NCBI GenBank assembly: GCA_021324995.1
Contig: JAJPIB010000032.1
Coordinates: 3,671 to 67,670, forward strand
Direction: 5' to 3'
Source of the DNA: Chlamydiia bacterium
GTDB taxonomy: Bacteria > Chlamydiota > Chlamydiia > Chlamydiales > Rhabdochlamydiaceae
Length of the DNA: 64,000 nt
Position 1 is the stretch's first letter, and the number at the start of each line of letters is the position of its first letter. Below, in pieces: positions 25,674 through 29,303 of this stretch. Both the position numbers and the translations under genes were made by a program. The notes under the pieces were generated by a model. That model was given only the letters and a program-made list of their open reading frames with translations. It was not told where the DNA came from and searched no databases.

Positions 25674-26450
25674 ATGAGTATGTCAGTTGATCCACAAAAA
25701 GATTTGAACGGCTTTATTGAGCAGTGGGAAAAAGCTGGGAAGCAATATGAGGCTGATTATGGCCAATTGCTCGCTATGATCCAGCAGATGCTGGTACTCG
25801 CGAAAAAAGGCGAAGTTGGGGAAGCATTTCAGATGGCTCAAATGGTTGTAATGCCTGGTGCGATGCAGGTTCAGGGTGATCAGATGAGAGAACTTGCTTC
25901 TTCTATGAACATTAGCTCCGCATTAGAAGAGTTTACGACACAAGCTCAGAATGACATGAACGCCGGTGGCAGCATGACGACGCAGCAGGGGGATGACTTT
26001 GTTAAATTCCTTAAAGAATTCCTTAAAGACATTAACGCAACTCCGCCTCCCGCTTGGTTGGATCCAAACACTAAATCTGCTCTTAATGATGCAATCCATA
26101 AAATCTGTGAAGCATTTGGATGTTCTAGTCCAGACGCCCCAGGCTTTACAGGGGATAAGATAGCGGCGATGATTAACAGTTGGACGAAGGATCCAACAGG
26201 CACCGTTTGGACAACGCCAACTGGCCAATTCCCTAACCCTGGTGGAAAGACAGGACAACAGTGTTTGCAAGACTTGCAATCTGGTTTTACTCAGTGGAAT
26301 AACACCGAATCGGCTCAGTCTCAGGTTCTGCAATCTCAAGAGCAGTTTGCGGGTAACGTGTTTAACCAGTACATGAACACCTGCGCGGATATTTTCCAAG
26401 CGTCGCAGAAGCAGGCGCAAACGATGGTTCAAAACCAAAGAAGTCAATAA
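25674..26450 (+). CDS. Gln-rich hydrophilic protein, first gene of the putative translocator operon
   Basis: 258 aa with no TM segment. Short intergenic gaps (24-35 nt) separate the four same-strand ORFs. A 460-bp AT-rich leader precedes it. Confidence 0.6.
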   Translation: MSMSVDPQKDLNGFIEQWEKAGKQYEADYGQLLAMIQQMLVLAKKGEVGEAFQMAQMVVMPGAMQVQGDQMRELASSMNISSALEEFTTQAQNDMNAGGSMTTQQGDDFVKFLKEFLKDINATPPPAWLDPNTKSALNDAIHKICEAFGCSSPDAPGFTGDKIAAMINSWTKDPTGTVWTTPTGQFPNPGGKTGQQCLQDLQSGFTQWNNTESAQSQVLQSQEQFAGNVFNQYMNTCADIFQASQKQAQTMVQNQRSQ

Positions 26451-26477
26451 TTATAAACTATAAAAAAGAGGTAAACC

Positions 26478-26909
26478 ATGAGCTTTTTATTAGCAGTAAT
26501 GGAAGCCGTTACTCGCTGTGTCCAGACCGGCTCGGAACAGCAGCTTGCGGATACGGCAACGACGACATTGGACGTCGGTATCGAGCAGAGCGTTTACAAG
26601 ACTTGGCTAGAAAAGATTAACAAAGCAACTAATAGCGTGCAGTCGTGGGCTAAGCATTTGAAAGACGGCACTTACCCTCCTAACATGGATAAATCTCAAT
26701 GTCAAAACGCTTTAACCAAAGCTCAGGCGACCCTACAAAATATGCAAACAGAGGAACAGACATACACCCAACAAGCAGACTCCGGTGTTCAAGCGATGCA
26801 GAACCAAACCGGACAGGACTCATCGACAATGCAGCAGCGTGTGCAATTGGAGGCGGCAATCAACCAGGTCGCACAAACTCTCACTTCTGTGCTCGGCCAA
26901 CGTTACTAA
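26478..26909 (+). CDS. Small Gln-rich helical protein (possible tip/filament-type or chaperone-type partner)
   Basis: 143 aa, with an aaagaggt RBS-like sequence upstream, positioned directly before the multi-TM protein. Confidence 0.55.
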   Translation: MSFLLAVMEAVTRCVQTGSEQQLADTATTTLDVGIEQSVYKTWLEKINKATNSVQSWAKHLKDGTYPPNMDKSQCQNALTKAQATLQNMQTEEQTYTQQADSGVQAMQNQTGQDSSTMQQRVQLEAAINQVAQTLTSVLGQRY

Positions 26910-26934
26910 GTAAAAAAAATAAAAAGGATAGATT

Positions 26935-28365
26935 ATGTCTACAGTGAATAGCTTTAATGATGAGTTTGAGCTTCAAGAGCTCGCTCAGCCTGTGAATGTC
27001 AGCAAAAAAGAGAAGGATACAGAAGTAGCGCTTGCCCATTTGGCGCTTCTGATTGAAGAAGTGATGGAAGCCATGACTTCTCCTGCAATCGCTGGGACAA
27101 ATAGCAAGATTGTCCACCCTAATTTCCAGGAGGAAGCTTCTCATGCAAACAATGGACCTTCCAATGCTCAGATGGAAGCCGCCTACAGTGCAATGATCGG
27201 ACTTCTTGCGCAGCTTCAGGGAGATATCGCGAAATACTCGAATCAAATCGCCAACTTTAACGCTGAAGTGGGAAAAGCTTTGATGAATGAGATGCAAAGC
27301 CAATTTAATCAAACAATGAAACAGCTGGATAAGATTGGTCAAGAACAATCGAATTCCTCATGGTGGTCTACGTTTACAAAATGGATTGAAGGAATCGTTG
27401 CTGCGATCGGGGTTGCAACAGCGAGCCTTTGTGGCCAGCCCGAGCTTGCTCTTATCATTCTCGGCTTTACGACGCTCTCGCTTTCCGGAGGCATGGATAA
27501 GCTCACTCAGGGCATTGCCGACCTGATCAGCAAGGCTTTAGTGGCAGATGGTATGCCTAAAGACCTCGCGGATAAGATTGCAAAGGTCATCGCCGACGTC
27601 ATCGTCGTCGCTACAACAATTGTGGCGACTGCCTTGACATGCGGAGCATCCGCAGCAGGGACAGTAGAAGCAGCAGTCGATGAAGCAGCAGCAGGGGGCG
27701 CTCAAGCCGCTGAAGAAGTGGAATCCTCTTCGCAAAAGCTTCTCAACTTTTTGGTAGACAACAATCCTTTTGCCAAGTTGTCTAAAACGGTGAATTTGAC
27801 ACTGCTTACCGGATCGATGGCAGTCGGTTCGACAAGCTTTGGACAAGATATCATGGCTGCGGCTTGCGCTAACCTGCCGGAAGGCACCGAAAAAGAAGCT
27901 TTAATGACAGCGATGGGGGTTGTGGTCGGCATTTTAACTGCCCTTGTAGGAGTTGGCACTAGCATCGCGCTTGCTGCGGGACCTGAATCGGAATCAGTTC
28001 TAAACACCATTGTTAAAAATATCACCACAAAGATAAAGGACCTTTTGAATGTTCAAGAGTTCACTTTGTCCACAGCATTGAGAACGCTGATGGGGGCGCA
28101 AGTCCTCGGTGCGATGCTCCAGTTTTCCGGACAAACAGCATCGGGTGTGATCTACGGCCAGCTGGCACAGACAATCCGCGATCAGGGAGAAATGCAAGCC
28201 TTGCTCTCCGAGCTCCAAGCGCTTCTTAAAATGAATAGCTCTCAATCATCGACTAACTCTAAAGCCCTTGCATCGGAGATGAGAACATGGGGATCTGAGA
28301 TTGCAGGATTATCGCTGCGCTTAAACGATGTTCAAAGGGCCGTTGCCCAAGAGCTCCAAGCTTAA
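26935..28365 (+). CDS. Candidate major T3SS translocator (SctE / CopB-YopB-SseC-like architecture)
   Basis: 476 aa. A hydrophilic coiled-coil N-terminus is followed by several hydrophobic segments (IEGIVAAIGVATASLCG, LALIILGFTTLSL, VIADVIVVATTIVATALTCG, AMGVVVGILTALVGVGTSIALAAG) and a C-terminal coiled coil. Confidence 0.6.
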   Translation: MSTVNSFNDEFELQELAQPVNVSKKEKDTEVALAHLALLIEEVMEAMTSPAIAGTNSKIVHPNFQEEASHANNGPSNAQMEAAYSAMIGLLAQLQGDIAKYSNQIANFNAEVGKALMNEMQSQFNQTMKQLDKIGQEQSNSSWWSTFTKWIEGIVAAIGVATASLCGQPELALIILGFTTLSLSGGMDKLTQGIADLISKALVADGMPKDLADKIAKVIADVIVVATTIVATALTCGASAAGTVEAAVDEAAAGGAQAAEEVESSSQKLLNFLVDNNPFAKLSKTVNLTLLTGSMAVGSTSFGQDIMAAACANLPEGTEKEALMTAMGVVVGILTALVGVGTSIALAAGPESESVLNTIVKNITTKIKDLLNVQEFTLSTALRTLMGAQVLGAMLQFSGQTASGVIYGQLAQTIRDQGEMQALLSELQALLKMNSSQSSTNSKALASEMRTWGSEIAGLSLRLNDVQRAVAQELQA

Positions 28366-28400
28366 TAAAATGATTAATCATAAAAAAGAGGAAAAAAACG

Positions 28401-29303
28401 ATGCATATCCAAACTAACCAAACAGAAAACACTTCTTATGCTGCGCAGCCAGGCTTTGGCGGAATGAATCAGGTTTCCAGCGGACCTGCTGGACTCTTGT
28501 ACTCTCTGTCCAATCAGCTGATCCAGATTTATAACCAACTTCAAAATCTGTACGGCCAGGTGGCCAACGCTGAGACGACGGTTCAGCAAGACACGATCAT
28601 TTCTGGAGCCGCAGCTCAAACAGATGCTGCAATCCAGCAATCGAACAGTATTTATTTCCAAATGGGGGAAGCATTATTCGGCGGCGTAGCTACTGCCGGA
28701 TCCACAGCCTTTGAAGCATACAAAGGCGGCGACTTGGATAATCAGATGGGAGATCTTGAAAAGGAAAAAGCTCCTCTAGAACAGTTAGATAAGCTGCAAA
28801 AGAAAGAAGATCTTAATTTTGGCAGAACAATCGGAACCCGCGAACCAACCGGGACAGAGATCACAGCGCGCGTCAACGAACTTAAGAGCGGGAAATACGC
28901 GAACACTGGAACTCATGATCCTGAAGTCATTAACCAGAAAGCGATCAATGAGATGTCGGATGAAGATTATACCCAGTTCAAAAAGGATCTGGACAACAAG
29001 CTCATGGATAAAGAAAAGCGGATCAACACCCTGCAATCCCGACGCCAAGTACAGCAATCGAGCTATAACTCTTACAGCCAAATCGGCACACAAATGGCAA
29101 ACTCAGCCTTTAAAGGAGGAGAAGCTACGACAACTGCGAGAGCGGGTCAAGCGCAAGCGATCCAACAGACCTCGAGCGGTGTTCAGCAGATGGCGGGAAG
29201 CACTGCGGATTCCTCAAGAGGAAGCATCGGTCAAGACTACGCCAAAGTCAGCGACGCGATCGCCGCAGCAAGACAGGGTGCGCAAGCCTACGCGCAAACC
29301 TAA
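28401..29303 (+). CDS. Candidate minor T3SS translocator (SctB / IpaC-EspB-like architecture)
   Basis: 300 aa and Gln-rich, with a single short hydrophobic segment (ALFGGVATAGSTAF). It follows the major-translocator candidate, matching the yopB-yopD, espD-espB and copB-copD gene order. Confidence 0.45.
   Translation: MHIQTNQTENTSYAAQPGFGGMNQVSSGPAGLLYSLSNQLIQIYNQLQNLYGQVANAETTVQQDTIISGAAAQTDAAIQQSNSIYFQMGEALFGGVATAGSTAFEAYKGGDLDNQMGDLEKEKAPLEQLDKLQKKEDLNFGRTIGTREPTGTEITARVNELKSGKYANTGTHDPEVINQKAINEMSDEDYTQFKKDLDNKLMDKEKRINTLQSRRQVQQSSYNSYSQIGTQMANSAFKGGEATTTARAGQAQAIQQTSSGVQQMAGSTADSSRGSIGQDYAKVSDAIAAARQGAQAYAQT

Follow-up and report, generated by a model that had tools for sequence, protein, structure and literature searches.

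All chlamydiae depend on type III secretion. To our knowledge, annotation of the pore-forming proteins that act at the host membrane is all but lacking outside the Chlamydiaceae, and we know of no settled assignment of the chlamydial needle-tip protein. Here, we describe a four-gene operon in a stretch of chlamydial DNA of 64,000 nt (the window, to which all coordinates refer unless another locus is named), which is likely to be the translocon module of the chlamydial type III secretion system (T3SS). The four genes are named A, B, C and D according to their order.

25674–26450, + strand: gene A, ATG start, 258 residues, acidic with an isoelectric point (pI) of 4.5, Gln-rich; candidate tip or filament protein of a new family
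26478–26909, + strand: gene B, ATG start, 143 residues, acidic (pI 5.0), Gln/Thr-rich; possible cytosolic partner or chaperone without tetratricopeptide repeats (TPR)
26935–28365, + strand: gene C, ATG start, 476 residues; divergent member of the SseC/YopB family, putative major translocator (SctE)
28401–29303, + strand: gene D, ATG start, 300 residues, Gln/Ala-rich; candidate minor translocator (SctB) by its position

The positions and sizes of the four open reading frames (ORFs) are exactly those given in an earlier note on this DNA, which had likened the operon to a T3SS tip and translocon module and had described its genes as tightly spaced, with gaps of 24–35 nt. The measured gaps are 27, 25 and 35 nt for A–B, B–C and C–D, and the Shine-Dalgarno-like sequences AGAGG, AAGGA and AGAGGA are found close upstream of the ATG codons of B, C and D, respectively. 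Glutamine makes up 13.2% of A, 16.1% of B and 12.0% of D, compared to 6.5% of C.

Profile comparisons place protein C, despite its strong divergence, in the SseC/YopB/IpaB/EspD (SctE) family. A profile built from C and six of its orthologs (A1) was searched against a set of 1.84 billion representative proteins and matched 258 clusters (formed at 50% identity) with E ≤ 1e-3, including 142 with E ≤ 1e-10. Scanning 90 of the members found in this way against Pfam identified PF04888 (SseC-like) in 20. The members P0141, P0133 and P0102 are tied to A1 at E-values of 1.3e-11, 1.6e-12 and 3.6e-16, and score 62.3, 48.3 and 40.7 bits, respectively, on PF04888 (cutoff 30.2) over the whole domain. Members nearer to C (E = 1e-100 to 1e-31) also give PF04888, below its threshold. 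When these three proteins were aligned with YopB, EspD and IpaB and compared with A1 using hhalign, the probability was 97.9% (E = 3.3e-13), with an alignment that spans residues 73–238 of C, a region in which the coiled coil and the two transmembrane helices are in register. YopB alone matches C with a probability of 69–75% across the same region. P0133 is the translocator of a complete Ysc-like T3SS cluster (locus L014), in which its gene is located directly after an LcrH-type chaperone gene; it matches the C profile with a probability of 98.0% and, on its own, detects IpaB, YopB and EspD. The homology of C to the SctE family thus follows from the PF04888-positive members of the A1 set and from the two hhalign comparisons at 97.9% and 98.0%. 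A likeness of the 476-residue protein to YopB, IpaB, SseC and CopB had been proposed in the earlier note from architecture only, with a search against PF04888 as the suggested check; the relationship is now seen in profile searches, by way of A1, though there is no direct Pfam match.

The N-terminus of C is polar and has no signal peptide, whereas the earlier note had named a cleavable signal peptide as a mark of an ordinary inner-membrane protein. Three clear hydrophobic segments are present (residues ~158–183, ~211–242 and ~320–350), not the “at least four” described there, and the first two are in register with TM1 and TM2 of YopB. In the AlphaFold model, which is of low confidence, long helices near the two termini span residues 77–140 and 404–475. 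C resembles SseC, YopB, IpaB and EspD in its size, the missing signal peptide and the long C-terminal helix, and its gene likewise lies beside needle genes and upstream of a gene for a partner of ~300 residues. C differs from these reference proteins in its third strong hydrophobic segment (320–350), in falling below detection by curated models, and in lacking both the [P/V]xLxxP motif and an adjacent TPR chaperone. We infer from its family that C is probably secreted via the T3SS and forms pores in the host membrane.

A word-indexed search with C returned seven relatives only, all metagenomic, of which two are called “hypothetical protein” by JGI and the rest are nameless. Nearly all of 30 C-family proteins whose public names were looked up are likewise “hypothetical protein” or nameless, one (P0048) carries the label “predicted PurR-regulated permease PerM”, and only two entries, both from Simkania, have T3SS names. 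The C family is therefore mostly new to annotation, the Simkania names being the known exceptions, and a large, almost wholly unnamed family of 258 clusters can now be placed in the SseC/YopB superfamily. A C-family protein of Simkania sp. is named “type III secretion protein”, and WP_013943802.1 of Simkania negevensis (UniRef100_F8L5G8; “Type III secretion translocator protein” in UniProt) is a homolog of C with an hhalign probability of 99.6%. Profile scans of species-representative genomes with A1 and with the Simkania protein gave no match, yet the Simkania protein is encoded in GCA_000237205.1. Since the scan misses this known protein, its negative outcome is not evidence that the C family is absent from a genome.

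C is not found alone. The cassette recurs with the same gene order and sizes in the related loci L001, L004–L008, L015 and L016, and BLASTP comparison with L015, in which C is ~29% identical, gives E-values of 9e-8 for A, 6e-12 for B and 9e-15 for D. The cassette lies just upstream of scc4–cdsD in L001, L005, L006, L015 and L016, the loci with enough flanking sequence, and clpX is on its other flank in L001, L015 and L016, the loci in which the far flank is visible. Its position in the window is the same, with clpX on one flank and scc4–cdsD on the other. One further contig contains the cassette in a variant gene order beside scc4–cdsD. In L016 (GCA_044223355.1, contig JBGAMB010000003.1, positions 2503–10441 of that locus), the whole cassette is tandemly duplicated, with two complete copies that share 65% identity in A, 93% in B, 58% in C and 75% in D. 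Since independent assemblies have retained all four genes as a set, a chance origin of the arrangement is excluded, and the C family can be said to travel as a conserved four-gene cassette beside needle genes. The metagenome-assembled genome that contains L016 is labelled Verrucomicrobia; the cdsD cluster in it is of chlamydial type.

The genomic setting of the operon is a T3SS cluster of chlamydial type. The following genes connect it to the needle gene and its neighbors.

29375–31015, + strand: eukaryotic-like Ser/Thr kinase gene (Pkinase domain, 100.8 bits)
31012–31497, − strand: E1, 161 residues, paralog of E2
31482–31910, − strand: E2, 142 residues, paralog of E1
32110–32553, + strand: scc4-like CesT chaperone gene (Pfam CesT)
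32585–34315, + strand: cdsD (Pfam CdsD domain)
34384–34620, + strand: cdsE, part of the conserved chlamydial T3SS cluster
34638–34886, + strand: cdsF, the needle gene, part of the conserved chlamydial T3SS cluster
34932–35378, + strand: cdsG (NCBIfam CdsG, 178.6 bits)

Orthologs of the scc4–cdsG segment (32110–35378, + strand) are present in L001 and L005. Downstream of cdsG, the window continues with a CT668-like gene, cdsN, cdsO, cdsQ, a Pkn5-like kinase gene and the secretin gene cdsC; on the 5′ side of the operon are genes for an SNF2 helicase, mreB, pckA, tig, clpP and clpX. The kinase gene next to the cassette is a variable insertion, which is found in the window, L004, L005 and L016 (two copies) and not in L001, L006 or L015; its product is possibly an effector. 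E1 and E2 are matched to each other by hhalign at 100%, their genes overlap by 16 nt, and their basic C-terminal tails end in …DWMRS and …QWMRS. Both are present between the cassette and scc4 in L001, L004, L005, L006 and L016, and L015 has a single copy. Neither matches any family, and no similarity to TPR proteins or class II chaperones was detected for them.

Proteins A, B and D were compared with known tip, filament and translocator proteins in several ways. Sequence searches of the PDB with the profiles of A, B and D returned nothing, and neither did such a search with the profile of C. Pairwise hhalign comparisons of A, B and D with single sequences of EspA, LcrV, IpaD, EspB, YopD, IpaC, LcrG and needle proteins gave nothing significant. 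Pfam scans of the members of these families (16 for A, 10 for B and 16 for D) identified no tip or translocator family at E ≤ 1, and comparisons with the positional equivalents in L014 were also not significant. The proposal of the earlier note that A and B take the place of EspA/SseB-type proteins was not established, since neither exceeds an hhalign probability of 1% with EspA, LcrV or IpaD, neither has a Pfam or PDB signal, and A has no fold match; the one positive sign for A is its CdsF-like C-terminal helix.

A is conserved in all related loci as the first gene of the cassette. In its AlphaFold model (confidence, pLDDT, of 69), a helical hairpin and a small α/β domain are followed by a C-terminal helix of 64 residues. 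The C-terminal part of A (about residues 223–258) aligns with residues 47–82 of CdsF, which form the C-terminal helix of the needle protein, up to the last residue (…MVQNQRSQ in A and …MVRNQKVQ in CdsF). The hhalign score of this alignment is 28.5, compared to 11.7 ± 2.3 (maximum 18.4) in 60 column shuffles and 11.6 for reversed CdsF. Proteins that assemble on the end of the needle use a needle-like C-terminal helix, and the C-terminal helix of A may bind needle subunits in this manner. A comparable C-terminal likeness was not seen between EspA and EscF as single sequences, or between CdsF of the window and the equivalent of A in Simkania, whose own CdsF was not compared.

D contains a single Gly/Ala-rich hydrophobic segment at a relative position of 0.31 along the chain, compared to 0.33 in EspB and 0.31 in IpaC, and its C-terminal 28 residues, RGSIGQDYAKVSDAIAAARQGAQAYAQT, are nearly invariant. 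A gene for a protein of ~300 residues directly follows the C gene in L001, L004–L007, L012, L015 and L016. By position and architecture, D is a candidate minor translocator (SctB). The proteins at the tip and minor-translocator positions of L014 are likewise unrecognizable when compared with LcrV and YopD; as the latter of the two is no easier to recognize than D, the missing homology of D weighs little. The Gln-rich composition and the one hydrophobic segment ascribed to the 300-residue protein in the earlier note were found, the segment being weak, whereas an IpaC/EspB-type identity was not, given the lack of a profile or Pfam signal and the lower C-terminal amphipathicity.

B is the most conserved of the four proteins, with 93% identity between the tandem copies of L016 compared to 58–75% for A, C and D. 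Its N-terminus (MSFLLAVMEAV) is hydrophobic and conserved, whereas those of A, C and D are polar; as a marker of non-secretion, this N-terminal conservation is a weak trend only. No similarity was detected between B and LcrH, IpgC, CesD, CesD2 or LcrG. With low confidence, we regard B as a cytosolic partner or chaperone, and the E1/E2 pair is the other candidate for such a role.

The absence of an adjacent LcrH/Scc2-like TPR gene, observed in the earlier note, extends to the entire window: none of its 224 ORFs of at least 70 residues encodes an LcrH-type protein (best phmmer E-value 0.09), while the positive controls LcrH, IpgC, CesD and the chaperone of L014 recognize each other at 1e-12 to 1e-30. 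No LcrH-type gene is found within the examined flanks of the other cassette loci. B, E1 and E2 reach hhalign probabilities of at most 0.6% against LcrH, IpgC, CesD and CesD2, and the sole TPR-like protein nearby is the needle co-chaperone CdsG. The motif by which class II chaperones are bound, [P/V]xLxxP, is absent from C, D and seven C orthologs in a pattern search that detects it in YopB, YopD and IpaB. At about the place of this motif in YopB and IpaB (residues 50 and 65), C has a different conserved motif.

27106–27126, + strand: KIV(H/Q)P(N/D)F, residues 58–64 of C, invariant in all 7 orthologs; candidate recognition motif

The form KxVxPxF is maintained in an alignment of 23 sequences, and KIV(H/Q)P(N/D)F may be a chaperone-binding or recognition motif. 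The chaperone and its motif are thus both missing, a coherent loss that suggests a different partner for the translocators.

One of the closest known counterparts of the cassette is found in Simkania (L012, FR872582.1). There, the C homolog is encoded by the third of four tightly spaced genes on the same strand (276, 233, 459 and 303 residues), with no Pfam-recognizable neighbors and no TPR chaperone, as in the cassette of the window. Each of the other three Simkania proteins is most similar to its positional equivalent (A, B or D), though not significantly. The Simkania locus differs in that it is not beside cdsD, and its fourth gene was not found to be followed by a terminator comparable to that after D. 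The Simkania cassette is flanked by three proteins without annotation (375, 505 and 347 residues; L012 positions 2161–5262 and 14364–15407), in which a common motif centers on K/R-x-F/Y-VFIP; they apparently constitute a paralogous family and are possibly effectors.

The translocator operon of Chlamydia trachomatis, scc2-CT577-copB-copD, also consists of four genes (PMC2817459). The slot of B, directly upstream of the major translocator, is occupied there by CT577, a “putative cytosolic protein” (PMC2817459, PMC7482065). CopB, compared here by its published features only, resembles C in having three hydrophobic segments and coiled coils (PMC4536800). Since the CopB ortholog of C. psittaci has been named “SseC like family protein” (PMC4536800), C and CopB, the latter known to us by its published description, very probably belong to one superfamily. 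Additionally, the two translocator sets of the Chlamydiaceae (scc2-CT577-copB-copD and scc3-copB2-copD2) recall the tandem duplication in L016. There are clear differences as well. The first gene of the Chlamydiaceae operon encodes the TPR chaperone Scc2, whereas A is not a TPR protein; CopB contains PxLxxP (PMC4536800) and C does not; and the C. trachomatis operon belongs to the sigma-54 regulon (PMC7482065), whereas no sigma-54 consensus lies upstream of A. In a pan-genome study of 2023, the CopB and CopD families were reported only for the Chlamydiaceae and Sororchlamydiaceae, and homologs were not known from other groups (PMC10448858).

Among other known systems, LEE4 of E. coli (sepL-espA-espD-espB-cesD2-escF) has an order of filament protein, major translocator and minor translocator that matches A, C and D, and, as in the cassette, the gene just before that of the major translocator does not encode a TPR chaperone. 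Nothing in LEE4 corresponds to B, the recognizable TPR chaperone CesD is encoded elsewhere in the locus of enterocyte effacement (LEE), and A is unlike EspA. The order of tip protein, small protein, major and minor translocator, which the cassette would share if A is a tip protein and D the minor translocator, is that of Yersinia lcrG-lcrV-lcrH-yopB-yopD and of L014. D (300 residues) is close in length to YopD (306 residues), and B corresponds by position to LcrH; however, LcrH is a TPR protein recognizable at E ≤ 1e-12 among class II chaperones, which B is not, and A is unrelated to LcrV in sequence and fold. The earlier note had likened the gene order to LEE4 and to Salmonella pathogenicity island 2 and had set it apart from the chlamydial arrangement. 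The likeness to LEE4 stands for A, C and D and not for B, and the chlamydial arrangement differs less than stated, since the C. trachomatis operon is also a four-gene operon.

These comparisons are consistent with the following mechanism. The four genes would be co-transcribed, with the transcript ending at a strongly conserved terminator. C would be exported through the CdsF needle, after which its two central hydrophobic helices would enter the host membrane and form a translocation pore, and D, encoded directly after C, would be its likeliest partner as the minor translocator. A would assemble on the end of the needle via the C-terminal helix that copies that of CdsF, and would provide a tip or platform for C and D. 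B would most likely not be secreted and would act as a cytosolic partner or chaperone, and no LcrH-type TPR chaperone encoded in cis would be used by the module. Since C and D have no PxLxxP and C contains the invariant KIVHPNF instead, recognition by another partner (B or E1/E2) is plausible.

Several observations weigh against the translocon interpretation, or parts of it. Homology of C covers its N-terminal half and the hydrophobic core only, and its AlphaFold model is of low confidence (pLDDT 44) and thus gives no structural confirmation. Direct scans with C, as with A, B and D, gave no Pfam match at E ≤ 1 and no NCBIfam match at E ≤ 0.1. The similarity between A and CdsF extends over 36 residues only, with an hhalign probability of 34–36%. 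Moreover, a needle-like C-terminus is expected of the inner-rod protein too, and A as an inner-rod protein would also fit its CdsF-like helix, though a CT668-like protein with likeness to FliE is already encoded in the cluster. A shows no sequence relationship to a solved tip or filament protein, and a Foldseek comparison of its model with the PDB gave 0.25 as its best E-value, and the 50 matches listed include no tip protein. The hydrophobic peak of D at residues 86–104 (KD19) is 0.77, compared to 1.1–1.6 in its orthologs and 1.9–2.0 in YopD, EspB and IpaC; its C-terminal hydrophobic moment is 0.36, compared to 0.56–0.68 in the same three proteins; and no homology of D to any of them was detected (best hhalign probability 10.5%, with IpaC). 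The hhalign comparisons of A, B and D with their positional equivalents in Simkania gave nothing significant. The sequence of the window was located in soil and mine metagenomes, in DNA datasets only. Finally, a class II chaperone could lie outside the 64-kb window, and a published scheme of other chlamydial T3SS clusters, namely those of Estrella, Parachlamydia, Protochlamydia and Waddlia, shows SycD/LcrH-like genes (PMC4333871).

This last point would suit a translocon module for which an ordinary TPR chaperone of the LcrH/Scc2 type is supplied in trans from another T3SS cluster, in which case B, E1 and E2 would have no chaperone role and the missing chaperone would reflect the split organization of the chlamydial T3SS genes. 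These genes lie in four separate clusters (PMC4333871), the visible part of the genome is 64 kb long, and no known chaperone resembles B, E1 or E2. We consider this variant a serious, if rather doubtful, alternative, as the [P/V]xLxxP motif of YopB, YopD and IpaB is missing in C, D and the C orthologs, and the cassette flanks examined contain no LcrH-type gene, whereas the Ysc-like L014 has one directly upstream of its translocator gene. It is unlikely that C alone belongs to translocation, with A, B and D being lineage-specific effectors or accessory proteins and the true tip protein and minor translocator encoded elsewhere. Such a view would account for the lack of homology of A, B and D to tip, filament or minor-translocator families, for the absence of a fold match for A, and for a hydrophobic segment and C-terminal amphipathicity of D below those of the reference minor translocators. 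However, the four genes stay linked, mostly in the same order, where C is ~30% identical, and are duplicated as a unit in L016, whereas effectors are usually gained and lost, as the neighboring kinase is. The tip and minor-translocator proteins of L014 are equally unrecognizable, so missing homology is to be expected, and A and CdsF have a C-terminal helix in common.

Still less probable is that C is an SseC-domain effector which is itself translocated, to end up for example in the inclusion membrane as Inc proteins do, and is not a pore former. The two closely spaced hydrophobic helices do resemble the bilobed hydrophobic domain of inclusion-membrane proteins, one genome contains two copies of the cassette, and the division of labor between the two translocator sets of the Chlamydiaceae is unclear (PMC4068993). 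Against this role, the region of homology to bona fide translocators takes in their coiled coil and, in register, both of their transmembrane helices, the C gene adjoins needle genes, and the cluster contains no other translocator candidate. That the operon is unrelated to type III secretion and that C is an ordinary bacterial membrane protein is extremely improbable. No curated family model directly recognizes A, B, C or D, as such an origin would predict, but C has profile-level homology to PF04888 members, YopB, IpaB and EspD, it has no signal peptide, and the linkage to scc4–cdsD is conserved.

With the operon taken as a translocon module, the cassette is the probable translocon of the non-Chlamydiaceae chlamydiae. 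It supplies concrete candidates for a minor translocator, a tip protein and a non-TPR chaperone, should improve the annotation of chlamydial metagenome-assembled genomes, and offers a test case for how translocators might be handled in the absence of the class II chaperone, which is otherwise near-universal, and of the motif it binds. A bolder combination, which we put forward quite tentatively and regard as improbable in its entirety, is that the cassette is the ancestral translocon of these chlamydiae, that A represents a new tip or filament family, and that a non-TPR chaperone (B and/or E1/E2) reads KIVHPNF in place of PxLxxP, so that the module would operate with components lacking known counterparts. 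If this combination were true, A, docking via its copy of the CdsF helix, would take the place of the chlamydial tip protein, which has long been vacant, and CopB and CopD of the pathogens would be derived versions rather than inventions without homologs.

The ends of the operon are marked by two further features.

25560–25612, + strand: two short AT-rich blocks at ~−114 and ~−77 from gene A, within an intergenic region of 460 nt
29338–29372, + strand: intrinsic terminator (hairpin and T-run) at the operon end, found by scan

Upstream of A, 12-mers of the AT-rich blocks (with at most one mismatch) are found at a matching distance from the start of A in 5–6 of 10 related loci, which makes the blocks a candidate promoter or regulatory region. 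A promoter scan identified no sigma-70-like site in this region, and no sigma-54 or sigma-28 consensus was found upstream of A. A parallel to the C. trachomatis operon in the form of a sigma-54 or sigma-28 promoter was considered and dropped for this reason.

The strong terminator placed at the end of the operon in the earlier note proved to be a perfect 10-bp hairpin followed by T7. Its stem (29338–29362) has 10 perfect pairs, six of them G-C, and a 5-nt loop, with the sequence AGCCGTTGTC-TTCTT-GACAACGGCT and the T-run thereafter; it occurs once in the window, where zero occurrences are expected by chance. The comparison comprised the sites in the window (29338–29372), L001 (9802–9834), L004, L005, L006, L007, L015 and L016 (two sites). 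The 25-nt hairpin is identical in nucleotide sequence in six loci, despite D proteins of only 40–56% identity, and three variant loci have compensatory changes at 3 of the 10 pairs, with only one of 90 pair cells broken. As the hairpin is better conserved than the coding sequence, a role beyond termination is possible, for instance in RNA stability or regulation.

The TTG start listed for the kinase gene (29351) overlaps the terminator, whereas its orthologs start at the equivalent of the ATG at 29387 (MTNIHFELLPIEI). The likely ATG in the window (29387, or alternatively 29375) is located 3–15 nt past the T-run; with a start just past the terminator, expression of the kinase would need read-through or an internal promoter.

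Some other features of the window were observed. The CT668-like protein encoded at 35656–36318 has 220 residues, with a C-terminal match to FliE, a protein of the flagellar rod (Pfam, E = 1e-4), and could be a T3SS inner-rod component. Two ORFs of 448 and 230 residues are located between cdsO and cdsQ (38351–40389) and have no Pfam match at E ≤ 0.001; the 448-residue ORF, which follows cdsO, occupies the slot of the needle-length protein CdsP. A protein of 501 residues (23708–25213, − strand) has a long Ser/Asp-rich N-terminal region of low complexity and no Pfam match, and is possibly a secreted effector. The same slot between clpX and the cassette contains a gene for ~530 residues without a Pfam match in L001, L015 and L016, which is matched to it by position only. 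Just upstream of tig, two tRNA genes (20088–20159 and 20225–20296) lie 66 nt apart and have the same Rfam score (69.5 bits), and are probably a tandem duplicate. Finally, a second, shorter GspD-like secretin of 540 residues (1379–3001, − strand) is distinct from CdsC (44333–48190) and is adjoined by a chlamydia-specific DUF5399 protein (3415–3918).

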